Origin: a bacterium
Lineage (GTDB): Bacteria > Armatimonadota > Zipacnadia > Zipacnadales > Zipacnadaceae
DNA length: 64,000 bases
Direction: 5' to 3'
NCBI GenBank assembly: GCA_030603495.1
Contig: JAUVXR010000001.1
Span: 4,993 to 68,992, forward strand
Position 1 is the first letter of the stretch; every line of letters begins with the position of its first letter. A program made the position numbers and the translations under genes. The notes below the pieces were generated by a model. It was not told the origin of the DNA. It worked only from the letters and a program-made list of their open reading frames with translations, and did not search any database. Shown piece after piece: positions 1-60,225 of the stretch.

Positions 1-233
1 TGCTCCTCGCTCTCCCCCAGGGCCTTCTGCGCTCGATCGCGCTCAATTAACGCTAAGCATATAATCAGGCCAAATATAAGCAGAAGACCTATCGCCAAGA
101 ATCCCAGGTAGAGCTGGTGGGGGGCCACGTCAAGAATCAACAACTCCCCAAACCGCCATTCGTTGAAACTGAAGTAGTGGCCAATTGCGTAAACCATCCC
201 GGCCAACAGCAGTGGAATAAGGGAAAAGCACAT
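1..233 (-). CDS. partial polytopic membrane protein; only the N-terminal 78 codons are in the window and the gene continues past the window start
   Basis: ATG at 233 (rc) is followed by 78 sense codons open to the window edge. The translation MCFSLIPLLLAGMVYAIGHYFSFNEWRFGELLILDVAPHQLYLGFLAIGLLLIFGLIICLALIERDRAQKALGESEE contains two hydrophobic helices. It lies 17 nt downstream of the stop of the 972-aa gene on the same strand. It is absent from the ORF track because no stop codon falls inside the window. Confidence 0.35.
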   Translation of the reverse strand, partial: MCFSLIPLLLAGMVYAIGHYFSFNEWRFGELLILDVAPHQLYLGFLAIGLLLIFGLIICLALIERDRAQKALGESEE

Positions 234-250
234 CGCTTTGTATTTAGTTT

Positions 251-3169
251 TCACAAGGTCACCTTCTGGCTATCCTGAATCATCCGGATACGTCTCAAAC
301 GGGGCAAGATCTTGATAGAAACCTCTTTGGCTTCTGCGGGCCTCAATTCCAAGTCTATCTCAGACTTTTCCAGATAATGGTAGGCAGGTAAGTTGTGGTC
401 ATATATCTTCAGACGCCACTCCCCAGGGCGCAAACTCTCAAAGAAGAATTCACCACTATAGTTTGTGATCGTGCGCAGGACCTCGTCACCATTAGCGAGC
501 TCGACAAGAATGTTTCCCAGACCCCAAGGTTCCCGCGAGTTCTGGCCACTTCCGGTACGGCCATTCCCATTCCCATTTCCGTTGCCACTGCCATTCGAGC
601 TTCGCGGGTCACCGACGACGTAGACAGCCTGGCCGTCATGCACTGTGTGCCCATTCCCGTTGCCATTGCCGTTCACGGGGAGTACCATTACTGTTCCTGA
701 GACGCGGGCAGCCTCAATGACGCTAATGTCAAGCTCTGTTATCTGGCCGCCTATTATTTCCACCAGAATTGGCAGTTTGTGCTCTGTGACCCGATTCAGA
801 CCGATAGACTTTCTGTCCACGTATACTGAGTAAGCCCCCGCGGTAAGGCAGGGGAAAACGAAATAGCCTTGGTCGTCGGTGACGGCTGTTGCGCCAGTGG
901 TGGTGAGGATTGCCCGCGCAATACCTGCACTGTCCGGCGCGTCGGCATCGAAAACTCTGCCTCGGATGACACCGACATTCTTCTTTTTTCTGACAGGTAG
1001 GCTCAGGGGGATGGGGATGGTATATGTGAATGCGTAGGTGGTGTCGTTGTTCCTGCTTAACTCATGCCTATAATGCCGGATCTGGAAATCCAAGCTGTGA
1101 CCGTTGCGCAGGGCATAACGGGTGCGGAAGCTAAACTGATCGGTTGCTGGTCGGTCACGGGCATCGAAGTTGTACTTCACATACCACAGACTCATCTCCA
1201 GATCGTCGCTTGGCTTCCACATTGTTGAAGCTCCCAGGTTATTGCTTCCACCCAGTAGCCGGCTTCCTCTGAGAGCATCATCTTTACCAAATCCTCCGTA
1301 AAGAGTGAGCAAGAAGTCCCGCGTCGGCCTATACGTGGTAAAGACATTGAAGTGGTCGACCCGTCCACTTCCACCGCCGATGAGGTCCCTTTGTTTACCC
1401 CCACGCGCCTCAACACGAAAACTAGACCTGCCCGTTGACCGTCCTACCGACAGCCGCAACGCGTCCTCTTCGTAGTCGTAGTCCGCGGGTGCCAGCCGGT
1501 CGCGACGGCGGAAATCGTCATAATCAAGCGAAAGATACCACTTAGACGGCAAGCTATACCTGAGGCTCAATTGCAACAGGTTTTCCTTGGGGGCCGTTGT
1601 CGCATCGCCCCGCAAGGCTAGATTCTTTTTCCAGCGGCTGTAAGATGCGCGGCCCTGGAGACGGCCTCCGAGCGGGAAGCTCACTGACCCCCTGGTATAA
1701 TCGGCATCGTGATAGTAGCCGTAGTAATCGGGCCCCGCGTGCGTTTTGCTGAAGGAGTAATAAGTCTTCCGCCCTGCCTGGCCGTTCAACCCGACGCGAT
1801 AGGCATCGTCACGCACGCCCCCGCTCCGATTGCTGTCGCTCCTGCCGTATTCCACCTCAAGTTTCATCTTATCAGAGGGTTGGAACTCGCCCTCCACACT
1901 CCACACGGAATCATGGACAGCAGGCGTGTCGCCGTACGAGTCGTACTCCTTCCGCAACAGATTGAATTTCGTCCTTAGCCTGTCGTTGATGCGGTGGCCG
2001 ACATAGGCGCCAAACTGTTTCCTGTCCGGCCGGCTCCAGCGGCTGCGGAGGTAGCATGTCCCCAACTTAACACTGTCGTCGGGAGGATGAAAACTGACTC
2101 CCAGCCCCCGACCGTAAGCAAAATAAGAAGTCAATCGGGAAAGCACAAAGCTCTGATCGCCCAGGCGCACGTCGTAGTCGGTAGTGGCATAATTCAGCCA
2201 GTATTCGTCCCGCTTTCCGAAAATGCCCTTGCCCTGAGTATCGAAGGGCCGCAAGAGAAACTTTATCGCCTTGGTTCCCTCTTCGTCCAAAGTCCCCGCG
2301 CCGCGCAGCTCGGCCTGAACCCCATGCGCACCGTCCCTTCCGTGCACATCAATAGTAAGCGTGGCTGGTAGCCGGTGGTACATATCCGGCTCCCTGGTTA
2401 CCGTGGGGATAATGTCAACGCTTACCGCAAGCGCTGCACTTGGCCGCCCGTCGGCCAGCTCCTGGGCCTCTGCCCTTATCCGTATCGTATGCTTGCGCAG
2501 CCGCTGCTCATTCGGATCCGTCTGGACAGTCACACTGACGACTTTGTTGGCGCCGGCGGCCAGGGTAGTCTCGGCAGGCTCTATGGTCGCCGGATAGTTC
2601 TCCCTGCTCGTGACTTCCAGTTTTACTTCAAGCGTGGCGTTGCCCTGGTTAATTACCCACAACTTAACCTGATACTCATCACCCGCAATTACAGTGTCAG
2701 GCTTGTGCGCGAGCAAGAGAGCCAATTCCCCCACCGGTAGCACCGCGATAGCTACTGTGTCGGCATCCTGGATCGCATAATCTCGTTGGCTGCGGACAGA
2801 ATAGGTGACATCATAGCGCTGTGCCAACGCGCTGATAGGGACCCTGAGAGCTACTATGCGGGTGGTGGCCTCGGAGGGGCGCAGCGTAAAGCTGCTGGTG
2901 GGGATAATGGACTGCCAATCCGGCGGGAGTTTCACAGCCTCGATGAATTCTTCCTCGCGGTCCGTCTCGTTGGTGACCAGGAAACTGAGGCTGACGATGT
3001 GGCCCGGGGCCATGTCCTGCAGGGAGGGCGACACGGCGCGCACTTCTATGCCATTGCCCTTGCCTTGCGCTAGGGCCGTCGCTGCGCAGAGCAGCAGAGC
3101 AAGAGCGACTAGCGCAACTTTATTCAATCTCCAGGTGATGCCATGTCCCAAAGACATATTCATCTCCAT
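251..3169 (-). CDS. large secreted beta-rich surface or outer-membrane-like protein with (GN)n linkers and two C-terminal carboxypeptidase-regulatory-like (transthyretin-fold) domains
   Basis: 972-aa ORF. The N-terminus has a signal peptide (KVALVALALLLCAATALAQG). The central roughly 600 aa are rich in Y/G/R/D/S in alternating patterns typical of beta-barrel or beta-sandwich proteins. Segments GRVFDADAPDSAGIARAILTTTGATAVTDDQGYFVFPCLTAGAYSVYV and GTVMVLPVNG...GEFFFESLRPGEWRLKIY resemble the CarbopepD_reg fold. GNGNGNG runs are encoded by hexanucleotide-like repeats near nt 540-700. Confidence 0.7.
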   Translation of the reverse strand: MEMNMSLGHGITWRLNKVALVALALLLCAATALAQGKGNGIEVRAVSPSLQDMAPGHIVSLSFLVTNETDREEEFIEAVKLPPDWQSIIPTSSFTLRPSEATTRIVALRVPISALAQRYDVTYSVRSQRDYAIQDADTVAIAVLPVGELALLLAHKPDTVIAGDEYQVKLWVINQGNATLEVKLEVTSRENYPATIEPAETTLAAGANKVVSVTVQTDPNEQRLRKHTIRIRAEAQELADGRPSAALAVSVDIIPTVTREPDMYHRLPATLTIDVHGRDGAHGVQAELRGAGTLDEEGTKAIKFLLRPFDTQGKGIFGKRDEYWLNYATTDYDVRLGDQSFVLSRLTSYFAYGRGLGVSFHPPDDSVKLGTCYLRSRWSRPDRKQFGAYVGHRINDRLRTKFNLLRKEYDSYGDTPAVHDSVWSVEGEFQPSDKMKLEVEYGRSDSNRSGGVRDDAYRVGLNGQAGRKTYYSFSKTHAGPDYYGYYHDADYTRGSVSFPLGGRLQGRASYSRWKKNLALRGDATTAPKENLLQLSLRYSLPSKWYLSLDYDDFRRRDRLAPADYDYEEDALRLSVGRSTGRSSFRVEARGGKQRDLIGGGSGRVDHFNVFTTYRPTRDFLLTLYGGFGKDDALRGSRLLGGSNNLGASTMWKPSDDLEMSLWYVKYNFDARDRPATDQFSFRTRYALRNGHSLDFQIRHYRHELSRNNDTTYAFTYTIPIPLSLPVRKKKNVGVIRGRVFDADAPDSAGIARAILTTTGATAVTDDQGYFVFPCLTAGAYSVYVDRKSIGLNRVTEHKLPILVEIIGGQITELDISVIEAARVSGTVMVLPVNGNGNGNGHTVHDGQAVYVVGDPRSSNGSGNGNGNGNGRTGSGQNSREPWGLGNILVELANGDEVLRTITNYSGEFFFESLRPGEWRLKIYDHNLPAYHYLEKSEIDLELRPAEAKEVSIKILPRLRRIRMIQDSQKVTL

Positions 3170-3947
3170 TGTCTGCTACGATGAGGGCCTTGTAGTTGCC
3201 GGCGGGCAGCAGAGACAAGTCTATCTTGCAGCGGGTGGAGCAGCCAGGGTAGATACGCCGCCGCTCTCCATCAAAACGCCCCAGGGTCATCCCTTGTTCG
3301 TCAAAAATCTCCGCCCACACCAACGGCCGCAGCCATTGCTCGCCGGTGTTTTCCATGTCTAGCTGCAAGACGCGCTTGCCGTCGTTGACAACGAGCTGTA
3401 TGTCGGCGAAATTCATGTCCGTCTCGCCCGCGTAGCCAGGGTTCGATGAGAAGATGTGCGTCACCATCTGAATTCCGTAGCGTATGACCGTGCGGATCCT
3501 GACTTTGATCTTGCCTTCTTCTTCGGGCGGTTCCAGACTCTCCTCGGTCAGCGGCTCAACCATGAGCATACTCCAGTATGTGCCAGCCAACTCCTGGTCC
3601 GCTGGAGACCGGAACGCGTAGTAGATAGAAGCTGTCCCCTTCGGGGGAACGATGAGCTGCCTCGGCGACAAATTGATCCACGACGCGTTAGAGCGCGCCA
3701 CACTACCGGGGTCGAGGTACATCTTTTTGCCTCCGGCATAAAACAGGCAGTCCTTCTGATAGCATCTGACGGTCTGGGGCTTCTCGGAGCGGTTACGGAG
3801 TAGAATTTGACCTTCGGCACTCTCGCCCGGCTGCAGGGTAGCCTCACGCGTCAAGGACCCGACGACAACAATACCCGCCGCTGAAGCCACACTTGCCGCT
3901 GTTATCAAGAGGCAAGAGTAAAGTGTTAACGTTCTGAGAGCTTTCAT
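3120..3947 (-). CDS. secreted protein of unknown function (275 aa); a periplasmic chaperone-like role is speculative
   Basis: N-terminal signal peptide MKALRTLTLYSCLLITAASVASAAG. Its stop overlaps the start of the 972-aa gene, and it sits in the same-strand operon of secreted proteins. No catalytic motif was recognised. Confidence 0.6.
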   Translation of the reverse strand: MKALRTLTLYSCLLITAASVASAAGIVVVGSLTREATLQPGESAEGQILLRNRSEKPQTVRCYQKDCLFYAGGKKMYLDPGSVARSNASWINLSPRQLIVPPKGTASIYYAFRSPADQELAGTYWSMLMVEPLTEESLEPPEEEGKIKVRIRTVIRYGIQMVTHIFSSNPGYAGETDMNFADIQLVVNDGKRVLQLDMENTGEQWLRPLVWAEIFDEQGMTLGRFDGERRRIYPGCSTRCKIDLSLLPAGNYKALIVADNGDEYVFGTWHHLEIE

Positions 3948-4435
3948 TCGATATCCACCACCGTGTAAATAATAGTAGTCGCATAATTGTCCGCGAACAT
4001 CTGCGCCGAAACCCCGCTCAACTTCTCTTGAATGTAAATGGTGGTTCTGTTGCCCGAACCGGAGAAGAACACCGTATCACTAGTGGTGACTTGTTGGTAA
4101 GTCGTCCCATCACTAATGGCTCCATCACCATTCCCGTCGTTTGTCCTCGCCACCCACAATACGAGGTCCTCATGCCATGTGGTGTCGCTTCTTTTCACAT
4201 CCACGCGCCAGTTATCATCGCTGCCGCTTGTGCCGGTGATGTCAATTACGACTTCGTCGGCGTCGCTTGTGTAGATGCTGTTCAGGTCACTTCCAGGCCC
4301 CGCCTCTAAATCGGCTTCGTCTACGGTCTCGGCCCAGGCCCCGGTCACCGTAATGTTTATGGCGCCTGCGGGCACACATGTCACCAAGGCAAACAGGGCA
4401 GCGAGCGCTATGCTTGGCCAAACTCCTCGTCTCAT
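3944..4435 (-). CDS. small secreted protein (163 aa), candidate surface or pilin-like subunit
   Basis: Signal peptide MRRGVWPSIALAALFALVTCVPAGA. The mature part is T/S/D/G-rich and beta-strand-like. A 4-nt start/stop overlap (3944-3947) with the downstream gene indicates translational coupling. Confidence 0.6.
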   Translation of the reverse strand: MRRGVWPSIALAALFALVTCVPAGAINITVTGAWAETVDEADLEAGPGSDLNSIYTSDADEVVIDITGTSGSDDNWRVDVKRSDTTWHEDLVLWVARTNDGNGDGAISDGTTYQQVTTSDTVFFSGSGNRTTIYIQEKLSGVSAQMFADNYATTIIYTVVDIE

Positions 4436-4527
4436 CTCATTGGGCCTCCCCTTTTGCTTGGGATAAGAGGTGGTAGGGTATCACAATCCTACCACCTCCC
4501 GTACTTCCTGATTCAGTTCCTACTACG

Positions 4528-5091
4528 CTACGCCGCGTCTGTGAGAGTTAGCGTCACCGTAGCATCTGTTGCCCCCTGCACCACCACATCTGCCAATGTA
4601 GTGATCGAAAGGGTCCAGGTCAGAGTGGCGCCGGGAGACCCCGAATGGCCCGACCCGATGCCGGTAATGATGGAATCCACGGAGCTTGCGGCGCTAGTCA
4701 AATCTATGCCGTCCGCTACGAGGTCACCATCGTCACCGCCGTGACTGGCTCCCAAAGCAGTTGCTTCGACGTTGAGCGTAAGGCCGGCAGGAATAGCATT
4801 CAGCAGTACTGACACATCTACGGACCGCGTCTCCGCAGCCCCCACCGTCGAGGTGTACTCGACACTGGTGGTCTCTGCCGCACTGACAACGGGACTGAGC
4901 CCAGAGCCTTCAGCAGGCGCACTAATGGTGAAGTCCGCAGTCCCCGTCGTGCCCACGTCAATTATCTCACTTATTGTTATGCCCACGAGCTGATCATCGG
5001 TATCCGGGGCCGCCATCGCGGCTGACCCCATCAGCGCCAGCAGGGCACCTACGAACAGAAACGTCATGGTCTTTTTCAGTGTCTTTTTCAT
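4528..5091 (-). CDS. small secreted protein (187 aa), candidate surface or pilin-like subunit
   Basis: Signal peptide MKKTLKKTMTFLFVGALLALMGSAAMA. The mature region is T/S/A/G/V-rich with no Cys, a beta-sandwich-like composition. An RBS (AGGAGA) lies 8 nt upstream of the ATG at 5091. It is the first gene of the operon downstream of the response regulator. Confidence 0.65.
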   Translation of the reverse strand: MKKTLKKTMTFLFVGALLALMGSAAMAAPDTDDQLVGITISEIIDVGTTGTADFTISAPAEGSGLSPVVSAAETTSVEYTSTVGAAETRSVDVSVLLNAIPAGLTLNVEATALGASHGGDDGDLVADGIDLTSAASSVDSIITGIGSGHSGSPGATLTWTLSITTLADVVVQGATDATVTLTLTDAA

Positions 5092-5111
5092 CTCTTGTAC
5101 TCTCCTTTGTG

Positions 5112-5135
5112 TTCGGGTATAATACCCGTTGGTGT
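5112..5135 (-). promoter_or_regulatory. candidate promoter/operator: perfect inverted repeat GGGTAT-A-ATACCC containing a TATAAT-like hexamer, about 25 nt upstream of the first secreted-protein gene
   Basis: Sequence cgggtataatacccg at 5117-5131 has 6-bp perfect arms with a 1-nt spacer. It lies in the 475-bp intergenic region between the LytTR regulator and the operon it may control. No -35 element was assigned. Confidence 0.25.
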
Positions 5136-5567
5136 TTGGAGCGTCCGCCGCGTCGCCTCAAGGCCACGCTATTGGCAGATCGACTCCTTCGCTACTCATC
5201 GCCGCGAGCTCTGTTAGCAGAGATGCTTTGCGGCGATGTACTTCTTGTGTCGGCCTCGGGAAGGCCTGAGCTCGACATTGTGCCCCGGGCCACCTCCTTT
5301 CAGAGCGTGTATTGTCAAGGTAGGGCCAAACAGCACCGCCTCTCGGTTCGTTGGACAGCACTATGACCCACGTGGGACCAAACCTATTACAACCCTGTAC
5401 TGTCACAATCGCTATCATACCCAAAAAACGTCGACAAATGGGGTGACTACCTCTCGGTGGTGTATTTCCTCTGCGAATGGTGTAAATCCACTTTCTAGGG
5501 GGGCTTGACGGGTGGAACAAGGGGGATTGTGGGCGGCTGAGTTAGTATCTACGCCCGTGCAGTATCC

Positions 5568-6419
5568 TCAAATGCCCAACAAGGTGAACAGCTGCTTCGC
5601 CCGGGAACGAGAGACGGTGAGGTCATTAAACATCATGCCGGCGCTGCCGTCCTTGAGGATAACGTCGTAGGAGCCGTCCCCTACGGGAATCAGATGCTCA
5701 ACATATTTGAGGTTGATAAGCACACCGCGGTTAATGCGCTTGAACCCCTGGGAAGTGAGACGCTGTTCAAGCCGCTTGATGGTGTAATAAGTTGGGAAGG
5801 CCTTTTCCGCCGTGTGCAGCACAGTCCGCCCGCCCTCTCGCGCGGCATAGATAATCAGGGAAGAGTCAATCAGCCGAACTGTGGCCTCCTCGTAGTCCTT
5901 AATGGGAAGCATGTACAAGGGTGCGGACGGCTGTAGTCCGACGAGTTGCGCGACCATTTCACGCAGCACCTCAAGTGCAGGCGCTTTCTCGTCTAGTGCC
6001 CGTTCGATGCGCTCGATAGTGGCCGCAATGCGGTCCTGTAGCACTTCGAGTTTGTCCGATTTGACCACATAATCAAGTGTGGCCAATTCGAACGCCTTTA
6101 CTGCGTATTCGTCGTGGGCCGTGACAAAGACAATCAGCGGTGGGTGGTCCAATGTAACTACAATCTCTGCGACCTCAATGCCACTTATGTCTGGCATCTG
6201 GACGTCGAGGAACAGTACGTCCGGTGTCGTTTTCTCCACTAGCTCCAAACAATCCGTGCCATTGAATGCTTGGCCGACCACTTCGACTTTGCCGGTGGCT
6301 TCTAGCAGATCCTTGATTATTGTGGCCCACATCGGCTGGTCATCTACAACTACCGCGCGTATCATATAGCCATCAACCCACAGCGCAGGGTAGTATCTGG
6401 GACAACTCCTGCAGAGCAT
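5568..6419 (-). CDS. two-component response regulator with REC domain and LytTR DNA-binding domain (LytR/AlgR/AgrA family)
   Basis: N-terminal receiver motifs are present (MIRAVVVDDQP..., LFLDVQMPDISG, VFVTAHDEYAVKAFE). The C-terminus has a LytTR-like region (RINRGVLINLKYVEHL). The true start is probably the internal Met at about 6365 (MIRAVVVDD), because the upstream 18 codons are Cys/Pro-rich and atypical. Confidence 0.85.
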   Translation of the reverse strand: MLCRSCPRYYPALWVDGYMIRAVVVDDQPMWATIIKDLLEATGKVEVVGQAFNGTDCLELVEKTTPDVLFLDVQMPDISGIEVAEIVVTLDHPPLIVFVTAHDEYAVKAFELATLDYVVKSDKLEVLQDRIAATIERIERALDEKAPALEVLREMVAQLVGLQPSAPLYMLPIKDYEEATVRLIDSSLIIYAAREGGRTVLHTAEKAFPTYYTIKRLEQRLTSQGFKRINRGVLINLKYVEHLIPVGDGSYDVILKDGSAGMMFNDLTVSRSRAKQLFTLLGI

Positions 6420-7096
6420 TGCGCTCTTGGGTAGGGCAGTTCATGTAGCAATGCGTCGAATATAGACAGGGCGCAGCTAGCGACAGTTCTCCGTGCAGGC
6501 TGCGCGATACTATCATCCTAACGGGGTATTTCATCCGACTTAGGAACAACCCACTGCACAGATAACTACCCCCGTCTGCTGGCGCCCGCCAAGTCTGTTT
6601 GCCGGAGATGTAAGTCATCAGCATTTGGGGGACCAATTAGGGGCTGCATTAAGGTACAGTTGGGGCGTTCCGGCTCGAGGGTTTGCATCCCTCTCCATGC
6701 ACCGGGCTCTCTGAGTTGTCCAGATCCAGGATGATACGCGATCTCCCGGTGTGCGCCATGGCCTGCGACATCCAGATGGCACTGAGCCGGGCCAACCCCG
6801 CCACATTCTCCCTCCGGGTCAGTATTCCGGTCTCAAATCGATTCAGGGTGTTGGTACTGGCTGCCGGCTTGCCGCTCGCCTCCGGGCCTACCACCGTACG
6901 CATTCACCGGATCTAGGGCCAAACGCTCCGCATCGTCGGTCTCCTCGTAGCCTGCCAGTCGGCTGTAGACTGCTTGCCGCAGCAACCCCACCTGATGGTG
7001 CTGCACATTGCGGCCGCGCCCGACTCGCTAAGCCCGCCACTGCACAACTGATGTCCAGTGGAGCCGCCATGTGCCGCTTTTGCCCTAACACTCAAC

Positions 7097-8251
7097 TTAT
7101 ATAGTCGTTTGAGATCGAATTTGGTTGGGTTCTTCTTCGGGGGATTTCTTGAGGTGAATGGCCGCGGCCTCGCCGGCTGGCTCCCCTTCGTTTTCGTTGC
7201 TGTAGGCGAGAAAGTCAGGCAAAGCCTCAGCCGCAGCCTGCTTGGTGGCTCCATCCGAGTGCAGGTAGCGTGAAGTCGTGCTCAGGTCAGCGTGGCCCAG
7301 CAGTTCCTGGACTGTTTTCACATCCACTGCCGAGTGGAGCAGCATTGTGGCGTAGGCGTGACGCAGACTATGGGCCGTGATGCCGGCTCGGTCAAGCCCG
7401 GCTCTCTTCACAATGCGCTTGAAGATTCGATAGAACGTCGAGTTGCCCATGCGCTTGGCGCACCTATTAGGGAAGAGAAGCTCTGAGGTTGACTCTCGCC
7501 CGGCCAGGTATTGCTTGAGTATTTGCCGGGTCTGTCCCGGCAGAGGAATTACCCGTTCCTTGCCGCCTTTGCCCATAATCCGAATGCGGCTCAAATCGGC
7601 TGTCAGGTCAGAGATGCGCAGATTCAGGAGCTCAGAGCGGCGCAAACCCGCAGTGAGCAGCAGCATGATTATCGTACGGTCGCGAATGTCGCCAGCAGCT
7701 TGGACCAACCGTCGGCCTTGCTCTGAGGTGGGGCCCTGGGGCAAACTGCGCGTCTGTTTGGGCTTCACCACACCCTCCACTGGGTTAGACTCCACCAGGC
7801 CGCTGCGCCTCAAGTAGCTAAAGAACGAGCTCGTAGCATTCAGTGCCCGCGTAATTGTGGCTGCTGATAGTCCACTCATCGAGACGGCAAAGGCCTGTAG
7901 CTCGCGGCTGCTAATCTGGCGAACGTCCGTTGTTAGGTTATGAGACACCAGGAAGTCGTGCAGCCGCCTCAGATCCCGGCCATAGGCTTGCAGGGTAAGC
8001 GGAGAAGCTTGGCGGTACTGCTCAAGATAGGTCAGAAAAGAATCCACCAAGTACTGGAAGTCGTAGATTCCCTGTTCGTTGTCAGCGACAACGGCCGCTC
8101 CCGGTTGGCAACCGAGGCCTATTGTCGTTGCCTCGTTTTGATGTTCAGGCACAATGCTTCTCACATGTCTATCCCTAACTGGTGTCCGGGGGACCGCCAG
8201 AACATGACGTCCGCCACCATCTATATGCGGTTGCCTACAGGCCAGACTCAT
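7097..8251 (-). CDS. tyrosine site-specific recombinase/integrase (phage integrase family)
   Basis: The C-terminal catalytic region has HSLRHAYATMLL ... LGHADLSTTSRYLH (R-H-R-Y residues). A SAM-like N-domain is present (FLTYLEQYRQASPLTLQAYGRDL). The ORF-track start is probably too far upstream, because the first roughly 50 codons are low-complexity and Arg/Pro-rich. Confidence 0.8.
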   Translation of the reverse strand: MSLACRQPHIDGGGRHVLAVPRTPVRDRHVRSIVPEHQNEATTIGLGCQPGAAVVADNEQGIYDFQYLVDSFLTYLEQYRQASPLTLQAYGRDLRRLHDFLVSHNLTTDVRQISSRELQAFAVSMSGLSAATITRALNATSSFFSYLRRSGLVESNPVEGVVKPKQTRSLPQGPTSEQGRRLVQAAGDIRDRTIIMLLLTAGLRRSELLNLRISDLTADLSRIRIMGKGGKERVIPLPGQTRQILKQYLAGRESTSELLFPNRCAKRMGNSTFYRIFKRIVKRAGLDRAGITAHSLRHAYATMLLHSAVDVKTVQELLGHADLSTTSRYLHSDGATKQAAAEALPDFLAYSNENEGEPAGEAAAIHLKKSPEEEPNQIRSQTTI

Positions 8252-19391: not shown

Positions 19392-20045
19392 ATGGGAGCA
19401 ACAACACGACACATCACCGCGAGAAGTACCTATACTGGTCCTACAAACGATAGGACGACAGCTGCAATTCTGACATTCGGCAAGCCCAAGCTGGCTTCGG
19501 AGATAGTATGTGACATTGCAGAGAGGCTGACACTTTCTGTGCCTCCCAAGCCAACTCCTATTCTCAAAGAGCTTGAGAAGCGAGAGATCACAAAGCGCCT
19601 TACACCCTCCCTTCCACGGGGTCGTCCGGGCACAGTCTATGGCCTGACTGCCAAGGGACGTGCGTTGCGTGCACATCTGTGCGAGGAACATGGGCTATCC
19701 AGTGTCTACCGCCAACTCATAATCAACTGGCACTGCTACGGCTGGGTGGCATGCGGGCGGCAGAAGAAAGCTATCATTTGCGCAATGAGTGACGAGGCAT
19801 TGACACCCAAGGAGATCCTGCAGGAGATCAAGAAGCGCTACCGGCCCAGGACGCAGGGAGCTGGCGCTGAGCCGATGGGGATAAGCAGGCAAAATCTCAA
19901 TGATATACTACAGAAAGCGATACAGAGAGAAATAGTGATCAGAGAAGAGGAACACAGAAAAAGAAGGAAGCGCAAGCCACTGGCGATGTACAGACTGAGC
20001 AAGACTGGACTGAAAATCAAGCAGCTGCTGACTAGCGCGGCTTAG
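19392..20045 (+). CDS. putative DNA-binding protein with two winged-helix-like repeats (217 aa)
   Basis: Two basic wing-like segments are present (RGRPGTVYGLTAKGRAL and RKPLAMYRLSKTGLKI). It converges on the integrase gene with a 14-nt 3' overlap. Function is inferred only from these patterns. Confidence 0.4.
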   Translation: MGATTRHITARSTYTGPTNDRTTAAILTFGKPKLASEIVCDIAERLTLSVPPKPTPILKELEKREITKRLTPSLPRGRPGTVYGLTAKGRALRAHLCEEHGLSSVYRQLIINWHCYGWVACGRQKKAIICAMSDEALTPKEILQEIKKRYRPRTQGAGAEPMGISRQNLNDILQKAIQREIVIREEEHRKRRKRKPLAMYRLSKTGLKIKQLLTSAA

Positions 20046-21327
20046 GCGCTCTTGCCTTGGGTAGTTCCGGCTGAACGATCCCTGCTTGTGCCAACTGAGA
20101 TCTTATCATCTTGGCAATGCGCTTGTTGCGGAATAGAAGATCCAGGATGGGATCGACTGCTTCCCGTTTCTTTAGTGTAGCCACGACCTTGTCCTGCTGT
20201 TCCTTGAGCAACGAAAGCGACTCCTGCAACTGCTGGTTGGCTTTCTTCAGCGCACCCATCTCATCACTCTTGACCAGTTCGGCCGTGCCTTCTTCACTTA
20301 TTCCTTCCCTGTCGATGTAACGCTGCGGCTGACTGCTGGCCATGCTCCAGCCATACCGATAGCAAAGCTGGTACTGGTTCAACTTGTGGCAGTAGTAGGT
20401 GGCTGAGCTGTGGCGTAAGATATGCGGCGTTACTTTCTTGTTCAGTACTTCTTTACCCAGCCTGCTAAGCAGCATGCGAAGGGCATTGTACGTCAAGGGA
20501 AACAACCTGGCCTCGGGGTTATTGCTTTCAGGATAAGCTTGCAGCCAGGCGTCCAGAGGCTCGGTGCACATCGCTAGACTGATAGTCCGGCCTTTGGTCT
20601 TGGAGTACTCCTTACGGATCCGCATCATGTAGTAGTCGTCTTTTCGGGTAAGGTCGCCGATCTTGATGCTGAGCAGTTCGGAAGCGCGGGCTCCGCTGTC
20701 GAAGAGCACCATAATCAGAGCCCGGTTTCTTACCGGGCAATGCGTTGCCAGCCGCTCGATCTCTTCTCTGGTCAGAGCGGGTATCTCTTTCATCTCGCTG
20801 AACGTGTCTATCCACTCGACCATTTCCGGATACCTGCGGTTATCACCGAGCAGCCACTTGTAGAATTTCTTAAGGGCCTTCTTGAAGTCCACTTTCGTCT
20901 CAGCCGCGAAGGGCTGGCCCCGCTTCGTCTGGTAGACATCCTTTTCCAGATTCCCTACTATCCTCTCGATGTCTGCCTGGTTAGCCTGGTCGAAGGCCTT
21001 GTCCAGCCACCCGGACAGCGTCTTGAGCACGGAGCTATACTTGAGTAGTCTGCTGGGCCCAATCTTCTTCTTAGCCCGGCCTTTGATGGTCTTGCCCAGT
21101 TCGCAGTCGGCCAGGAATTTGAGAATGAGCTGCTTGTTGCGGGCCAGGAGGCTGCGGTCGCTTCTTAGAGACTTGAGTTTCCTCTCGTAAGCTTCCCCCA
21201 ACCGATGGATGTCGATTGCCATGGAAAAGGCAGGCATCGCTACTATATAAACTTTTCCCTTCTTTAGCACAAAAAGTGGTAATGCCCCCAGCGAGAAGAC
21301 ATAGTTCTTGTTCGGTTTTGGGGGCAT
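20032..21327 (-). CDS. tyrosine site-specific recombinase/integrase (431 aa)
   Basis: The catalytic region has HILRHSSATYYC and downstream conserved Tyr. A SAM-like N-domain and typical integrase spacing are present. The N-terminal roughly 60 aa may be an extension. Confidence 0.75.
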   Translation of the reverse strand: MPPKPNKNYVFSLGALPLFVLKKGKVYIVAMPAFSMAIDIHRLGEAYERKLKSLRSDRSLLARNKQLILKFLADCELGKTIKGRAKKKIGPSRLLKYSSVLKTLSGWLDKAFDQANQADIERIVGNLEKDVYQTKRGQPFAAETKVDFKKALKKFYKWLLGDNRRYPEMVEWIDTFSEMKEIPALTREEIERLATHCPVRNRALIMVLFDSGARASELLSIKIGDLTRKDDYYMMRIRKEYSKTKGRTISLAMCTEPLDAWLQAYPESNNPEARLFPLTYNALRMLLSRLGKEVLNKKVTPHILRHSSATYYCHKLNQYQLCYRYGWSMASSQPQRYIDREGISEEGTAELVKSDEMGALKKANQQLQESLSLLKEQQDKVVATLKKREAVDPILDLLFRNKRIAKMIRSQLAQAGIVQPELPKARAPKPR

Positions 21328-49165: not shown

Positions 49166-49750
49166 TCAGCCACTTGGAAGGTGATCCGCAGCGAGGTGCA
49201 TCACTTCGCCCTCTCCGGTACCGTGCAGCCCTGTTAGCCCTGTTGGCAGCTGACTATCGTGCGCTGTTCTCCGAAGCTCGTCAAGCGCAGCGAGCTGAGC
49301 CGCCTCGTTTGCGAGACCGACGATCTCTCCCAGCCGCCGCCCAGAGTAGAGCTGTTGCTCCCCAGGGGGAAGGGATATAACGTACTGCCGGATCTCCTCG
49401 GGTAGACGGAGCAGACTCATAACCTGCGTAACCCTGGCTCTGCTCAACTTGTACCTTCGCGCAATCGCCGCTCGATTGTTAACCACTTCGGCCTCCAAGA
49501 GTTCCTGAAACTCATAGGCAAGTAGCAGAGGATGCCTGTAAGCACTGCCTTGAGATTCCTCAATGTCGGGTTTTGCCCGTCGTTTCAGGCTTTCTGGGCA
49601 AAATGTAAACCGCTCGAAAAAGTTCCTGCAGTTGTCCGCCCCGGGGAGCCAAGAGAGGACAACAGGGGGGACTGTAGCCGCCTGTTCAGCGGTGTCCCCT
49701 TTGTTTTCCGATGGCCCAAGCTTACTCGCCGGCTGCCAACACAGGATCAA
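49166..49750 (-). CDS. putative DNA-binding protein with ParB/KorB-like helix-turn-helix
   Basis: The segment RAAIARRYKLSRARVTQVMSLLRLPEEIRQYV resembles the ParB/Spo0J HTH. Its start overlaps the integrase stop (ATGA at 49747-49750). The true start may be internal or a non-ATG codon. Confidence 0.45.
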   Translation of the reverse strand: MILCWQPASKLGPSENKGDTAEQAATVPPVVLSWLPGADNCRNFFERFTFCPESLKRRAKPDIEESQGSAYRHPLLLAYEFQELLEAEVVNNRAAIARRYKLSRARVTQVMSLLRLPEEIRQYVISLPPGEQQLYSGRRLGEIVGLANEAAQLAALDELRRTAHDSQLPTGLTGLHGTGEGEVMHLAADHLPSG

Positions 49751-50673
49751 ACTGCTCTTGAAGCTGCGCTCTCGGCAGATAGCGGATGCGCCGTGATTGC
49801 CTCACGCAGTTGCTGTGCGCCCACATGCAAGTAGATGGCCGTCGTATCCAGCCGGCTGTGGCCCAGCAGATGCTGGATGGAGACCAGATCAGCGTTACCA
49901 GTCTGCAGCAGAAGCGTCGCGAAAGAATGCCTCAACGTATGCATGCTCACGCCGGACCGGTTGATGCCACTCCGGTTGAGGGTGTTCTTCCAGATGATTT
50001 GCAGGCGGGTTGGGTAGATGCGGTTGCCGCGGTTCGTGGTAAACAGGTAATCATGTCTCTTCGTGCGGCGATACTCTAGCCAATCAGCAATCGCCTGGCT
50101 CAGCTCCTCGACCAGCGGAATGATGCGCGTCTTGTTCCCCTTCCCGCGCACAACACGCAGTGTCCGAGCGCTTAGATCAGCATCGCCCGTTTTCAAGCTG
50201 AGCAACTCGCCTCGCCGTAAGCCGGCGTAGATGAACGTGGCCAATATCGCATGGTCACGAAACGCGCAGTACTCAGTGCGCTGCTGCAGAGCCGCATCCA
50301 GTAGTTTCTGCAGGGATTCCTTGCTGAGATAGACGGGGAGGGTCTTCTCACGGCGCGGCATACTAATCTTTGCCATGACCCCTGGCGAGGCCAAGTCCCT
50401 CTCACACAGATACTTCCAGAAGCTCTTCAGCGAACAGACCCGGCGAGCTACACTGTTGCTGCACAGCCCGCGCTCGTACATCGCCACGATCCACGAGCGG
50501 ACCATTTCCACGGTGATCTCCGCAGGCTTATCTACCGCGTAGTTTTCTTGCAAATGTGTGAAGAATTGTGTCAGATCGGAGCGATAAGACGTGGCGGTAA
50601 GGCGGCTGCAGCCCCTCTCGGCCTGCAGGTAGAGCAGGAATTCCTGAGCGAGTGTGTCTATAATGCTTTGCAC
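49747..50673 (-). CDS. tyrosine recombinase (XerC/XerD-like integrase, 308 aa)
   Basis: SAM-like N-domain (LQAERGCSRLTATSYRSDLTQF). Catalytic region HTLRHSFATLLL ... LLGHSRLDTTAIYLHV. It ends about 170 nt from the 3' end of rnpB. Confidence 0.85.
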   Translation of the reverse strand: MQSIIDTLAQEFLLYLQAERGCSRLTATSYRSDLTQFFTHLQENYAVDKPAEITVEMVRSWIVAMYERGLCSNSVARRVCSLKSFWKYLCERDLASPGVMAKISMPRREKTLPVYLSKESLQKLLDAALQQRTEYCAFRDHAILATFIYAGLRRGELLSLKTGDADLSARTLRVVRGKGNKTRIIPLVEELSQAIADWLEYRRTKRHDYLFTTNRGNRIYPTRLQIIWKNTLNRSGINRSGVSMHTLRHSFATLLLQTGNADLVSIQHLLGHSRLDTTAIYLHVGAQQLREAITAHPLSAESAASRAV

Positions 50674-55870: not shown

Positions 55871-57112
55871 ATGTCAGAGGCGTTGATTAAGGCTTATGTG
55901 GTCGGGAATGAGGCGCGGCCTGGGGAGAGTAAGCAGCTCCCGCAGTCACCGTGGCACGAGGACTACGTCAACGGGCAGGCCGTCGAGCCGCCGTACGATC
56001 TGGACGCGCTGGCCGAGCTCTATGAGACCAATGCCGCGCACAAGGCCTGCGTGGACGCCAAGGTGGTCAACTGCGTGGGACTGGGCCACCGGTTCGTACC
56101 TACCACCAGCCAGCCAGACCAGGTCTCCCCGGCTAACCTGGCGCTGCTCGAGCACCTGTTTGCCAACTGCAATCTGCAGATGACCTTCACCGAGGTGATG
56201 CGGGCAGTCTGGACCGACGTGGAGTGCCTGGGGAACGGCTACGTGGAAGTGACGCGCAATAGCCTGGGCAGCATTGACGGCTTCTACCACGTGCTGGCCA
56301 CCACGATGCGGATCAAGCCCAACGGGGAGGGCTTCGTGCAGCTCCGGGGCACCCAGAAGTGCCACTTCCAGCCCCTGGGCACCGACGCGAGCGAAGACCC
56401 CCTCACCGGCGAGACCCAGAACGAGATCATCCATTTCAAAAAATATACCCCGCAGTCGGGCCTATACGGTATCCCCGACATCGTTGCCGCCCTGGCGGCG
56501 GCGGCCGGTGACAAGGCCGCGCGTGAATACAACATTGACTTCTTCGAGCACAATGCCGTCCCGCGCATGGCGATAGTCGTCGAGGGCGGACAGCTTTCCA
56601 AAGAACTGCTCTGGCAGATCCAGAACTACATGGAGACCGAGATCAAGGGGCATGGCCACAAGACGCTGGTTCTGGACGTGCCGGGCAACGATGTGAAGGT
56701 GCGCATCGAGCCGCTGACGGTGGGGCGGCAGGACGAGGCCTCGTTCCTGGACTACCGCAAGGCCAACCGCGACGAGATCCTGATGGTCCACCGCGTCCCG
56801 CCAAGCAAGATCACCATCGTCGAGAATGCCAACCTGGCCAACTCCCGGGACCAGGATAAGACCTTCCGCGAGCAGGTCATCCGCCCCGAGCAGCGTCGGA
56901 TTGAGTACCAGATCAACCGGATGATCCGCGAGCAGATGGGCATCGGCGACTGGGAGTTCACCTTCCGCGAGGCCGACCTGGGCGAGGAGCGCGAGCACGC
57001 GGAGATTGCCCGCATCTACGCCGATTTGGGCGCCTGGACAGTGGACGAAATCCGCCAGCGCCAAGGCCTCTCGCCGTTAGTAGAAGCTGGCCACGAGGTC
57101 GAGGCTGAGTAG
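55871..57112 (+). CDS. phage portal protein (HK97-family-like)
   Basis: 413 aa, directly after the large terminase. Composition and length fit HK97-type portals. The order terminase-portal-protease-capsid is canonical. Confidence 0.6.
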   Translation: MSEALIKAYVVGNEARPGESKQLPQSPWHEDYVNGQAVEPPYDLDALAELYETNAAHKACVDAKVVNCVGLGHRFVPTTSQPDQVSPANLALLEHLFANCNLQMTFTEVMRAVWTDVECLGNGYVEVTRNSLGSIDGFYHVLATTMRIKPNGEGFVQLRGTQKCHFQPLGTDASEDPLTGETQNEIIHFKKYTPQSGLYGIPDIVAALAAAAGDKAAREYNIDFFEHNAVPRMAIVVEGGQLSKELLWQIQNYMETEIKGHGHKTLVLDVPGNDVKVRIEPLTVGRQDEASFLDYRKANRDEILMVHRVPPSKITIVENANLANSRDQDKTFREQVIRPEQRRIEYQINRMIREQMGIGDWEFTFREADLGEEREHAEIARIYADLGAWTVDEIRQRQGLSPLVEAGHEVEAE

Positions 57113-58176
57113 TGAAGGCACTGCTCGTCGGCCAACTTGGCCTGGGTGGTGCAGAGACACAGATCGAAGCGACGGCAAGACAATTAAGACAGCTTGGCCT
57201 GAGGATTGATGTCACGGCTGAAGACCGGCCAGACTGTCAGGGCTATGACGTGCTGCATGTCTTCAATGCGCCGGATCCGAGGCTGACGCTACGACGGATC
57301 GAGGCAGGCAAACGCCGAGGCGTGCCGGTTGCGCTCTCGACGATCTACTGGAGCGGGTACGAGCTGTATATGCAGTGGGCGAAACGCGGCTGGCGCACTG
57401 CCGAAGAGCAGGCGTTTCACTGGAACGAGCGCAAGCAGCGGCTCAGGCCCGTATTCGCCGATGCGGATATGTGGCTGCCGAATTCGCACGCCGAATACGG
57501 AATGCTGGTCGCCGACTTCGGCGTCAGCCGGCTGTACCGGGCGGTGCCCAATGCGGTAGATGCTGGCTTTGCACAGCTTGCTGAGCCGGTAGGACAGGCG
57601 TCTCGCCTGTCCATCTGCCCGACAGGCGGGACGCCTGTCGTACCGAAACTCAACCCTCCCGAATCCGACGTCCTGATGGTCGGGCGCTGGGAACTGCGCA
57701 AGAATCAGTTGGGGCTGCTGGAGGCGCTGGCGGATACTGATTACCAAATCCTAATAATCGGTGGCGAGAACAGCCACGACCGCGAGCACAATCAGGCGGC
57801 GCACAGCCTGGCCCAGCAGCGTGGCAATGTGCAGATACTGCCGGCGACGACGGACCGCGTCTTCCTGGCCAACTTGATGAGGAATACCAAGGTGCTGGCC
57901 CAGCCTAGCTTCTACGAGACGCCCGGGCTGGCGGCACTGGAGGCCGCAGCATGCGGCGCAGCAGTCGTAGTATCTGAGCGAGGCTGCACGCGGGAGTACT
58001 TCGGCGACGAGGCGTATTACTGCGATCCAATAGATGCTGACAGCATTCGTCGAGCCGTTGAGGCAGCCTTGACCAGCCGCCCATCCGCAGCGCTCAAAGA
58101 GCGCATCAGGCGAGAGTTTACCTGGCGGCGAGCCGCAGAAGAGACAAGACTAGCCTACGAACGACTGCTGGCATGA
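57112..58176 (+). CDS. glycosyltransferase, GT-B fold (GT4-like)
   Basis: The C-terminal motif is FYETPGLAALEAAACGAAVVVSERG (E-x7-E-like donor-binding signature of GT4). Its start is coupled to the portal stop (ATGA... at 57112). Confidence 0.7.
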   Translation: MKALLVGQLGLGGAETQIEATARQLRQLGLRIDVTAEDRPDCQGYDVLHVFNAPDPRLTLRRIEAGKRRGVPVALSTIYWSGYELYMQWAKRGWRTAEEQAFHWNERKQRLRPVFADADMWLPNSHAEYGMLVADFGVSRLYRAVPNAVDAGFAQLAEPVGQASRLSICPTGGTPVVPKLNPPESDVLMVGRWELRKNQLGLLEALADTDYQILIIGGENSHDREHNQAAHSLAQQRGNVQILPATTDRVFLANLMRNTKVLAQPSFYETPGLAALEAAACGAAVVVSERGCTREYFGDEAYYCDPIDADSIRRAVEAALTSRPSAALKERIRREFTWRRAAEETRLAYERLLA

Positions 58177-58392
58177 GTATCGCTACATCTCGGAGGTCGG
58201 CCAGGGCGCAGACGATTTCCTCGGCCACGCACCCGAATACCTCGGCGGCGAGGCGGATGTGTGGTGGGCGATTAGATAGACCACGGACAATCAAAGGGGC
58301 ACAGGCTGGAAGCCTGTGCCACCGGTAAGGCATTCCCATTCCGAGGCCGCAGATCATTCTGCGGCCTCTTTGTTTGCCAAGGAGGTGAGCAG

Positions 58393-59265
58393 GTGAGTGA
58401 GGTGAGTCAGGAGAGTAAGTTCGCGGTGACGCTGCCGCTGGTTAAGGCCTGGCAGGACGAGCAGGGGCAGATGTGGGTCGAAGGGGTGGCCTCCTCGACC
58501 AGCCTGGACCGCCAGCGCGAGCGCATGACCAGAAAGGCCATCGCCAAGATGCAGCAGTACCAGGGCATTGATCTCTTGCCCAGCCATCAGGCCGGGCCCC
58601 TGGAGGAGTTAGGGACGGTCGAGCAGTGCTGGGCGGATAACGACAGCTTCCGGCTGAAGGCGCGATTGGATGAGAGCAGCCCGCAGGCTATGCGGCTGTT
58701 CAAGCGCCTGGCCGAGGGCCGCCAGTACAGCCTGAGCGTGGGCGGGCGTGTGACGGGGGCGTACTGGGACTTTGACCCGGAGGCCGGCGCGCGCATCCGG
58801 CATATTGACGACGTCACGCTGGATCACGTGGCGGTATGCCGGCCGCAGCAGGCAGCCAATCCCGATACCTACCTGGCGGCGCTGGCCAAGGCAGCCGAGC
58901 TGGTCACAGAAGATAGCCCGCCGCAAGCTGCCGACGACAACGAGGACCTCATCCGCCGACTGGGGCAGACGGCGCTGGAGGCCTGCCGACGGCTGTGGCC
59001 CTTCGGCAAGAGCACGACGGAAGCCGAGGTCAGGGCCGAACCGCAGGAGCCCGGAGAGCTGGAGACCCTGCGCGCGGAAGTGACCATGCTGCGCAAACAG
59101 CGAGCGGAAATGACTGTCAAGACGGCGCCCGCCGCCCCACAGCCAGACAGTGGATCGGCGGACCGAGACGTAACCGAACCGGAACCGGGCCGGCGGCAAT
59201 CGCTGGTTGCCGAGCAGCGCCCGGGGACAGATAAGCAACGCAACTTCTGGAAAGGAGTGCTTTAG
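58393..59265 (+). CDS. HK97-family prohead protease with C-terminal scaffold-like charged/coiled region
   Basis: The N-terminal KFAVTLPLVKAWQDEQGQMWVEGVASSTSLDRQRERMTRKAI resembles the conserved block of Peptidase_S78/U35 prohead proteases. The C-terminal half is E/R/A-rich. It sits immediately upstream of the capsid gene. Confidence 0.6.
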   Translation: MSEVSQESKFAVTLPLVKAWQDEQGQMWVEGVASSTSLDRQRERMTRKAIAKMQQYQGIDLLPSHQAGPLEELGTVEQCWADNDSFRLKARLDESSPQAMRLFKRLAEGRQYSLSVGGRVTGAYWDFDPEAGARIRHIDDVTLDHVAVCRPQQAANPDTYLAALAKAAELVTEDSPPQAADDNEDLIRRLGQTALEACRRLWPFGKSTTEAEVRAEPQEPGELETLRAEVTMLRKQRAEMTVKTAPAAPQPDSGSADRDVTEPEPGRRQSLVAEQRPGTDKQRNFWKGVL

Positions 59266-60210
59266 ATGGGAAACGACGAGATGCTGGAAAAGGCAATTGA
59301 CACCTCCGACATCGCCGACGGCGGCTTGCTGAATACCCAGCAGGCAAACAAGTACATCGAGATGACGGTAGACAACTCCGTCATGCTCAAAGAGGCGCGC
59401 GTGGTGCGGATGCGCGGGCCGGCGCAGGAACTGGACAAGATCGCCACGACCGGGCGCGTCAGCCAGCTCAAGACCGAGGGCGTAGCCCCCGAGACGCTGG
59501 CCGAGCCGGCCTTCGATAAGGTGAACCTCAGCTCCGTGGAGATCATCACCCCCTTTGAGATCACCTTCGAGGCGCTGGAAGACACCATCGAGCGGGGTAA
59601 CTTCGAGGATACGGTAATCTCGGTAATGGCCAAGCAGACCGCTACCGACCTCGAGGAGCTCGCGGCGCTGGGCGATGATGAGTCGGGCGATACCTATCTC
59701 GCCGGTCTAGACGGCTGGCGCGTGCTGGCCGATGACGGCCACATCGTGGACTTCGAGGGCGCGACGCTTGATCGCGCCGGCCTGTCGGCGATGTACCGGG
59801 CCCTGCCAGATGCGTACAAGCGCAATCACAGCGATCTGCGCTACTACTTCGCGCCCGCCGCAGTCCAGGACTGGAACGACACCTTCGCCGACCGGCCCAC
59901 CGCCGCCGGCGATGTCGCCCTCACGGGCGGCGTGGCGCCTCCGTATATGGGCGTGCCGCTGGTGTCGGTGCCGGTAATCCCGACCAACCTGGAAGGGATC
60001 TCGGGCTACGCGAGCGGCCCGAAGCTCAGCTTCGGTCTGCTCACACTGCGCGATAACCTGATCTTCGGCATCCAGCGCCAGGTCAGGATTGACCGCGACA
60101 AGGACATCCTGCGCGGAGTGAATATCTACGTCATCTCCACGCGGATCGCTGTAGCCTATGAAGAGAGCGACGCCGTGGTAGTCGGCATCAATCTGGGTCT
60201 GACTGCTTAA
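59266..60210 (+). CDS. major capsid protein (HK97-fold-like)
   Basis: 314 aa, directly after the protease/scaffold gene. Length and composition fit HK97-like MCPs. The call rests mainly on gene order. Confidence 0.55.
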   Translation: MGNDEMLEKAIDTSDIADGGLLNTQQANKYIEMTVDNSVMLKEARVVRMRGPAQELDKIATTGRVSQLKTEGVAPETLAEPAFDKVNLSSVEIITPFEITFEALEDTIERGNFEDTVISVMAKQTATDLEELAALGDDESGDTYLAGLDGWRVLADDGHIVDFEGATLDRAGLSAMYRALPDAYKRNHSDLRYYFAPAAVQDWNDTFADRPTAAGDVALTGGVAPPYMGVPLVSVPVIPTNLEGISGYASGPKLSFGLLTLRDNLIFGIQRQVRIDRDKDILRGVNIYVISTRIAVAYEESDAVVVGINLGLTA

Positions 60211-60225
60211 GCGAACGGCTGACGG

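Follow-up and report, generated by a model that had tools for sequence, protein, structure and literature searches.

Here we describe a cassette of four genes, preceded by the gene of a LytTR-type response regulator, at the start of a 64-kb stretch of DNA (64,000 nucleotides; hereafter the window) from a bacterium of the Armatimonadota (family Zipacnadaceae; GenBank assembly GCA_030603495.1, contig JAUVXR010000001.1, positions 4,993 to 68,992 of the forward strand). The four genes encode two small secreted proteins, A and B, a 275-aa protein resembling the periplasmic chaperones of pili, and a 972-aa protein resembling their outer-membrane ushers. We think it likely that together they form a sequence-divergent, previously unnamed chaperone-usher (CU)-type system for the assembly of a surface fiber, with a polymeric fiber as the most likely product. 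This reading draws on (i) the gene module and its conservation, (ii) the predicted chaperone-like and usher-like folds, (iii) the homology between A and B, and (iv) an N-terminal extension that distinguishes A from B. The initial annotation of this DNA, made from its letters alone, had proposed a noncanonical, chaperone-usher-like surface-structure locus, a proposal that has found its support in predicted structure and not in sequence similarity. CU pili are textbook adhesins of Proteobacteria and drug targets; they are usually regarded as mainly proteobacterial, and their detection relies on sequence models of the usher and of PapD. The cassette would add a whole pilus class that such models have missed, in hosts that mostly belong to uncultured environmental phyla without characterized surface appendages.

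Gene module and its conservation

The five genes are co-directional, all on the minus strand, and the open reading frame (ORF) list of the window together with Pfam bore out the initial description of a LytTR regulator followed by four secreted proteins, with the sizes and domains then given:

5568-6419, minus strand: response regulator with REC and LytTR domains, 283 aa (ORF list and Pfam)
4528-5091, minus strand: small protein A (type A subunit, as proposed below), 187 aa (ORF list)
3944-4435, minus strand: small protein B (type B subunit, as proposed below), 163 aa (ORF list)
3120-3947, minus strand: chaperone-like protein, 275 aa (ORF list)
251-3169, minus strand: usher-like protein, 972 aa (ORF list)
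1-254, minus strand: N terminus of a histidine kinase with two hydrophobic segments, running off the window (ORF 254 to 3)

The start of the chaperone-like gene overlaps the stop of gene B by 4 nt, the usher-like gene overlaps the chaperone-like gene by 50 nt (3120-3169) if the first ATG of its ORF is used, and the GTG start of the kinase overlaps the usher-like stop codon; linked in this way by overlaps or by shared start and stop codons, gene B, the 275-aa and 972-aa genes, and the ORF that follows them form one translationally coupled unit. Elsewhere the usher-like protein may start at Met3 or Met5, and the exact 972-aa product is absent from the protein collection. All four nonregulator proteins have signal-peptide-like N termini, as read from the sequence, and the AlphaFold2 (AF2) models of the 275-aa and 972-aa proteins begin with N-terminal helices. 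Pfam and NCBIfam returned zero matches for the three smaller proteins (A, B, and the 275-aa protein).

The fetched loci with the A-B-chaperone-usher module number about 80 and come from more than 15 diderm phyla, the products of the module are always hypothetical proteins, and its recurrence in so many independent loci puts the arrangement far beyond chance. A full-length usher-like gene directly follows the chaperone-like gene in almost all of 87 loci (those with room for it), and one to five small genes of a single family lie upstream of the chaperone-like gene, A-B-chaperone-usher being the commonest order (48 loci). When the neighbors were compared all against all across 83 nonredundant loci, the small, chaperone-like, and usher-like families alone were conserved. 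The 32 homologs found for the 972-aa protein, none of which bears a functional name, have a protein of about 270 aa and one to four small ORFs encoded upstream of them, in neighborhoods that are otherwise unrelated; nor is any database homolog of the 972-aa or 275-aa protein named. With overlaps or tight spacing in the window and the same grouping in about 80 loci, the subunit, chaperone, and usher genes are clustered in one operon. A set of unrelated secreted proteins, the outcome that the initial annotation had named as fatal to its proposal, is ruled out by the co-occurrence of these gene families across loci and phyla.

The best-conserved component is the 275-aa protein, with at least 419 clusters at 90% identity and relatives in at least 304 species-level genomes; at 50% identity, its family comprises 738 clusters (E ≤ 1e-30) or 4,989 (E ≤ 0.001). 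By the labels of their metagenome-assembled genomes (MAGs), the hosts include Armatimonadota, Zixibacteria, Ignavibacteria, Desulfobacterota, Riflebacteria, Planctomycetota, Nitrospirota, Synergistota, Spirochaetota, Verrucomicrobiota, Atribacterota, Dictyoglomaceae, KSB1, Krumholzibacteriia, and Bacteroidota, and among the loci proteobacterial MAGs are few. A monoderm host, under which the usher analogy would have failed, is not what the window indicates: a GT9 heptosyltransferase (Pfam Glyco_transf_9) suggests a lipopolysaccharide-bearing, diderm host, and the predicted barrel points the same way. The cassette, barrel gene included, also occurs in MAGs labeled Clostridia (L022, L049, and L081), which could represent diderm Firmicutes lineages, misbinned contigs, or horizontal transfer.

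Predicted folds of the chaperone-like and usher-like proteins

From an alignment of 73 sequences, AF2 modeled the 275-aa protein as two beta-sandwich domains (predicted local distance difference test [pLDDT] score of 91.5), a predicted two-domain, boomerang-like fold of the PapD type. Its best fold matches were the enterococcal WxL-interacting protein (WxLIP) and the pilus chaperones CfaA, CsuC, SafB, and FimC, and at the level of single domains it matched many members of the PapD-like superfamily (Hydin, CEP192, VAP, and OCRL), so that the PapD-like fold once suggested as a check on this protein is indeed predicted. Its sole sequence link is to WxLIP as well (E value of 0.002 over 180 residues, profile against PDB sequences), with sub-threshold WxLIP_PGBD matches in 21 of the 73 family members, scanned one by one against Pfam. 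The model has no C-terminal transmembrane helix, the last strand of domain 2 occupying residues 265 to 274 of 275. Residues 147 to 165 are strongly conserved, with alternating bulky hydrophobics, and are preceded by a low-confidence loop (residues 134 to 156); Arg156 is invariant in the family. On the basis of the model, we propose that the 275-aa protein may be a periplasmic, PapD-like and WxLIP-like subunit chaperone. An apparent hhalign match of the family to eight Escherichia coli chaperones (90.8%) was discarded as a signal-peptide artifact, since the mature sequences reached only 16%.

For the 972-aa protein, the AF2 model (pLDDT of 84.5) comprises the following parts:

residues 41-254: two Ig-like domains, following a signal helix
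residues 264-719: barrel of about 24 to 26 consecutive strands
residues 724-830 and 888-961: two transthyretin-like beta-sandwich domains
residues 834-878: disordered GN-rich linker of low pLDDT

The model thus predicts a barrel of the size of the 24-strand translocation barrel of ushers, and the beta-barrel pore that had been suggested for this protein is supported by fold comparison, with ushers ranked top in both fold searches. In the Foldseek list, eight FimD chains came first (E values of 5e-15 to 2e-13), followed by PapC (9e-11); TonB-dependent receptors (2e-8 or weaker) and LptD (2e-7) stood lower, and only nonbarrel Ig-repeat axoneme chains lay between the ushers and these other barrels. 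Pfam assigns the N-terminal Ig domains to the NEW3/CARDB type and confirmed the two carboxypeptidase-regulatory-like domains noted at the outset (CarboxypepD_reg; E value of 4.2e-11). The accompanying remark that C-terminal transthyretin-like domains are not usher features holds at the level of the protein family but not of position, which equals that of the C-terminal beta-sandwich domains of ushers. The second N-terminal Ig-like domain (residues 152 to 239, at about 2453-2716) has weak matches to models of the PapD-like superfamily (Cep192_D3, HYDIN_VesB, and ASH) in most family members, and the usher-like platform may itself carry a chaperone-like domain there.

SusC-like receptors carry CarboxypepD_reg domains, and their occurrence here, as in SusC and TonB-dependent receptors, would also suit an outer-membrane uptake or porin complex, with the barrel as channel and the small and 275-aa proteins as substrate-binding accessories. 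Weak Porin_4 or OMP_b-brl matches in some usher-like homologs and the presence of TonB-dependent receptors and porins lower in the fold-search lists fit this alternative. We nevertheless regard it as very unlikely: ushers lead those lists, no Plug or TonB_dep_Rec match appeared among the Pfam families listed for the window protein and its usher-like homologs, and CarboxypepD_reg is C-terminal in the 972-aa protein and not N-terminal. Moreover, the obligate neighbor of the barrel gene encodes a PapD-like protein, and A and B, whose sequences were read by eye, have no lipobox.

The small proteins, the proposed assembly pathway, and related systems

By hhalign, proteins A and B are homologs (96.8%; E value of 2e-10); their alignment opens with residue 1 of mature B, and in mature A it sets in after 16 residues. 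The offset is a family property, the median distance from the cleavage site to a conserved core glycine being 21 residues in A (n = 118) versus 6 in B (n = 68), with tight interquartile ranges, and the extra segment of about 15 residues in A shows alternating bulky hydrophobics (V36-x-[YFV]38-x-V40). In Fim and Pap pili, an N-terminal donor strand is present in the subunits that polymerize and missing from the one at the distal tip; the extension of A, absent from B, therefore matches the CU rule for polymerizing versus tip subunits, at the level of sequence pattern. The two families also differ in their spread: type A, comprising 118 upstream ORFs in the fetched loci, is more variable (mean column identity, 31% versus 37% for B) and often multicopy, whereas type B (68 ORFs) is usually single per locus and directly upstream of the chaperone-like gene. 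We propose that type A may be the polymerizing (major) fiber subunit, with an N-terminal donor-strand extension, and that type B may be the tip or initiator subunit. Sequence folding also revealed a structure downstream of gene A:

4465-4500, minus strand: 13-bp GC-rich hairpin directly 3′ of gene A

Hairpins of differing sequence stand at the same post-A position in L001, L002, L003, and L008, and in other phyla, too, they come after the last A gene. Among 47 A-to-B junctions, z was below −2 for 28, and stems of 8 bp or more were present in 34. The persistence of these hairpins across loci despite their unrelated sequences fits a highly expressed major subunit, and we propose that they act as an attenuator or mRNA stabilizer raising A over the downstream genes.

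These elements can be arranged into a mechanism. Sec would export all four structural proteins, and in the periplasm the 275-aa protein would cap new subunits by placing an F1-G1-like hairpin (residues ∼134 to 165) into their incomplete beta-sandwich (donor-strand complementation, the mode of action of PapD-like chaperones). The 972-aa protein would be the outer-membrane platform, its periplasmic Ig-like and transthyretin-like domains docking chaperone-subunit complexes and its barrel of 24 to 26 strands serving as the exit pore. Type B, being without the N-terminal extension, would enter first and become the tip of the fiber; type A would polymerize next, its N-terminal strand of about 15 residues inserted into the preceding subunit (donor-strand exchange). 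The hairpin 3′ of gene A may lift the level of A relative to the machinery, and the adjacent LytTR regulator would activate the operon at a direct repeat upstream of gene A, with its signal supplied by the PAS kinase(s) whose coding sequence lies at the operon end. A comparable step has been predicted for WxLIP: in AF2 models of WxLIP-WxL complexes, the equivalent hairpin loop becomes a strand and completes the WxL beta-sandwich (PMC10599100), which amounts to donor-strand complementation, a term that the paper does not use.

The closeness to WxLIP raises an alternative in which the same machinery yields a nonfilamentous product, with monomeric or small-oligomer A and B held on the cell surface as a diderm counterpart of the Gram-positive WxL-WxLIP complex. 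WxLIP is both the top structural match and the sole sequence match of the 275-aa protein, a typical WxL cluster likewise has one WxLIP with two partner proteins (PMC10599100), and the cassette contains no adhesin gene, its fiber being a matter of inference. We consider this outcome unlikely. The hydrophobic-alternating extension of about 15 residues in A, absent in B, is hard to explain without strand exchange from subunit to subunit, and the multiple A paralogs and the post-A hairpin fit a stoichiometrically dominant polymer subunit. In addition, the WxL model was unmatched at E ≤ 1 in all 91 A and B proteins scanned, among the families listed (for type A, the best 25 of 31), and the 275-aa protein lacks the C-terminal transmembrane helix of WxLIP.

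Several points weigh against a CU-type fiber assembly system. The evidence is wholly computational, the incomplete-Ig groove of A and B is putative, and the cassette contains no gene for a two-domain adhesin. Per-member Pfam scans left PapD_N unmatched at E ≤ 1 in the 73 members of the 275-aa family and gave a single PapD_C match (E value of 0.0032), with neither in the window protein; the usher-like family showed no match to Usher (PF00577), PapC_N, or PapC_C at E ≤ 1, in the window protein and among the 25 most widely matched families listed for 33 members; and the 91 type A and B proteins gave noise only, with no SCPU or fimbrial match. Family-to-family comparison with the proteins of six E. 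coli K-12 CU operons was no more successful, with no significant hhalign match to E. coli K-12 chaperones after signal-peptide trimming (16%), a value of 5.5% against six E. coli ushers (untrimmed), and values of 24 to 44% against E. coli K-12 pilins, also untrimmed and limited to the C-terminal strand. Profiles of A and B searched against PDB sequences likewise returned noise only, and that of the 972-aa family matched no usher. Within the predicted barrel, a map of strands assigned by DSSP shows no plug of about 80 residues inserted between strands, the largest insertion being about 14 residues (308 to 321), and the domains flanking the barrel belong to families other than those of the usher N-terminal domain (NTD) and C-terminal domains (CTD1 and CTD2).

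These results also bear on whether the cassette is simply a known CU clade (archaic sigma/Csu-type or alternate CFA/I-type) that is poorly annotated in MAGs. Such an explanation has very little probability in our view, given that the Pfam Usher and PapD models recognize all known clades and yet, the one PapD_C match in 73 proteins aside, were unmatched here per member, that no SCPU or fimbrial family was met in the small proteins, that the domain composition of the usher differs from that of the known clades, and that the databases hold no named homolog.

Compared with the CU pili of Proteobacteria (Fim, Pap, CFA/I, and Csu), the likely CU-type system described here has the same gene module of subunits, a two-domain periplasmic chaperone, and a large outer-membrane protein. 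The FimD and PapC pores are the nearest barrels to that of the 972-aa protein, both being flanked by periplasmic beta-sandwich domains; one subunit class has an N-terminal extension and one does not; and a hairpin follows the major-subunit gene. The differences are that (i) sequence homology of the cassette to PapD_N, PapD_C, Usher, or the fimbrial families is undetectable; (ii) its barrel is without an inserted plug domain; (iii) the usher NTD is replaced by two CARDB/NEW3-type Ig domains, and CTD1 and CTD2 are replaced by two transthyretin-like (CarboxypepD_reg) domains; (iv) a two-domain lectin adhesin and the conserved pilin disulfide are absent; and (v) the hosts are Armatimonadota, Zixibacteria, Ignavibacteria, Planctomycetota, Synergistota, and others, with few proteobacterial MAGs. 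By architecture and fold, then, the cassette would work like a chaperone-usher pathway; the curated CU families do not include it. With the chaperone-usher principle unchanged, what is new is the unrecognizable sequences, the plug-less usher with other periplasmic domains, the chaperone closer to WxLIP, and the other taxonomic range. Such a departure in usher architecture would make plain which elements are indispensable to the usher mechanism.

The closest structural relative of the 275-aa protein, WxLIP, comes from the WxL/WxLIP (DUF916-DUF3324) clusters of Firmicutes (PMC10599100; PDB 9i1y and 9i25), with which the cassette shares the pairing of one chaperone-like or WxLIP protein with two partners, as well as the long hairpin loop that in WxLIP is predicted by AF2 to complete the beta-sandwich of the partner. 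The cassette differs in having no C-terminal transmembrane helix, partners without WxL similarity, an obligate outer-membrane barrel, and diderm hosts, and it offers a concrete, testable bridge from CU chaperones to the WxLIP proteins, which in enterococci, listeriae, and lactobacilli are enigmatic. A second CU-like system outside the Proteobacteria is that of the Pam pili of the candidate phyla radiation (CPR), described in a preprint (bioRxiv 10.64898/2026.03.03.709456). In that account, chaperones with structural homology to PapD and FimC, anchored by a transmembrane helix, accompany these donor-strand pili in the operon, and the pilins are Ig-like, assembled by donor-strand exchange, and reported as exclusive to CPR. 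Its abstract and the passages searched name no outer-membrane barrel component, and it is by this description, not by sequence, that we set Pam apart from the cassette. The cyanobacterial CT pilus cluster was also considered and is a different system. None of the literature and curated families that we found describes the cassette. A bolder view, which we hold to be doubtful, is that the cassette represents a deep, separate donor-strand branch linking proteobacterial CU, Gram-positive WxL-WxLIP, and CPR Pam systems; PapD-like chaperoning by strand complementation would then be of ancient origin and shared by nearly all bacteria, WxLIP proteins would serve as pilus chaperones tethered to the membrane and not as host-binding adhesins, and the plug-less usher would be gated by its transthyretin-like domains.

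Regulation and surrounding DNA

The regulator matches the Pfam families Response_reg (E value of 3.6e-21) and LytTR (1.8e-16). Because its REC domain begins only at residue 23, translation probably starts at Met19 (MIRAVVVDD…, at ∼6365), 18 codons into the annotated ORF, which is a better fit to the 264-aa homolog in L002. The regulator had been called an orphan, a label that does not survive, since the kinase ORF beginning at the usher-like stop codon has 55% identity over 49 aa to the N terminus of the PAS-HisKA-HATPase_c protein (749 aa) that takes this place in L002, a locus whose usher-like protein is 89% identical to that of the window. The same match fits the suggestion that the off-window membrane protein is possibly the cognate sensor. 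In two close relatives, L002 and L008, a LytTR regulator likewise precedes the cassette, and none of the eight regulators scanned from other loci is of the LytTR type; of 83 loci, 19 have two-component proteins in the vicinity of the cassette, with LuxR, NtrC, OmpR, or DUF4388 outputs. Signal-dependent control of the cassette is thus recurrent, and the LytTR link is lineage-specific. LytTR as a defining, conserved part of the system was rejected in view of the other output types.

The upstream region of gene A, where LytTR-type direct repeats had been anticipated, contains the following candidate elements:

5458-5492, minus strand: imperfect 15-nt direct repeat, AGTGGATTTACACCA / AGAGGAAATACACCA, 20 nt from start to start, upstream of gene A
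5414-5419, minus strand: TATGAT, a −10-like hexamer 38 nt downstream of the repeat (read from the sequence)

The repeat motif occurs nowhere else in the window (two matches versus 0.38 expected) and is kept in L002 and L008, both of which carry LytTR regulators, as the flanking and downstream sequence diverges. Its geometry is similar to that of the paired repeats used by LytTR regulators such as AgrA and BtsR, and we regard it as a candidate binding site for the LytTR regulator. TATGAT, a putative promoter of gene A, is kept in L008, with about 60 nt between it and the start of gene A. A consensus scan for promoters and terminators found no more sites than in shuffled sequence and did not call TATGAT, as is expected for an activator-dependent promoter. 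With the two-component regulators AgrA, BtsR, and LytR, the window protein shares the REC-LytTR composition and, as a candidate site, a pair of direct repeats spaced by about two helical turns ahead of the operon that it would control; it differs in its scores, which are far below the equivalog cutoffs of BtsR and LytR, the nearest NCBIfam models, in its PAS-HisKA partner kinase, and in its lineage-specific association with the cassette.

A leader of about 200 nt (5092-5410, minus strand) separates gene A from the putative promoter. Conserved between the window and L002 and absent from L008, it contains a 9-bp perfect hairpin, CATCGCCGC...GCGGCGATG (5197-5238), and an Rfam scan gave zero matches for it.

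Beyond the regulator, an 84-aa ORF (6649-6903, minus strand) matches positions 87 to 154 of 435 of DDE_Tnp_1_4 (E value of 5e-8, below the cutoff) and is a transposase remnant between the regulator and an integrase gene. No tRNA integration site adjoins the locus. The region 7097-57112 looks like mobile-element or defense-island DNA, with many large ORFs without a Pfam match and, among its recognizable genes, those for HerA/DUF87-like and AAA ATPases, a 1,254-aa SMC/AAA_23 protein, a ThiF-family protein, and an HATPase_c_3 protein, in addition to the following:

7097-8251, 20032-21327, and 49747-50673: three tyrosine integrases
55871-57112: phage portal protein

Farther on (57112-61485), a GT4 glycosyltransferase, which also matches "GT4-conflict," a phage-capsid-family ORF (59266-60210), and the GT9 heptosyltransferase (60226-61485) lie side by side.

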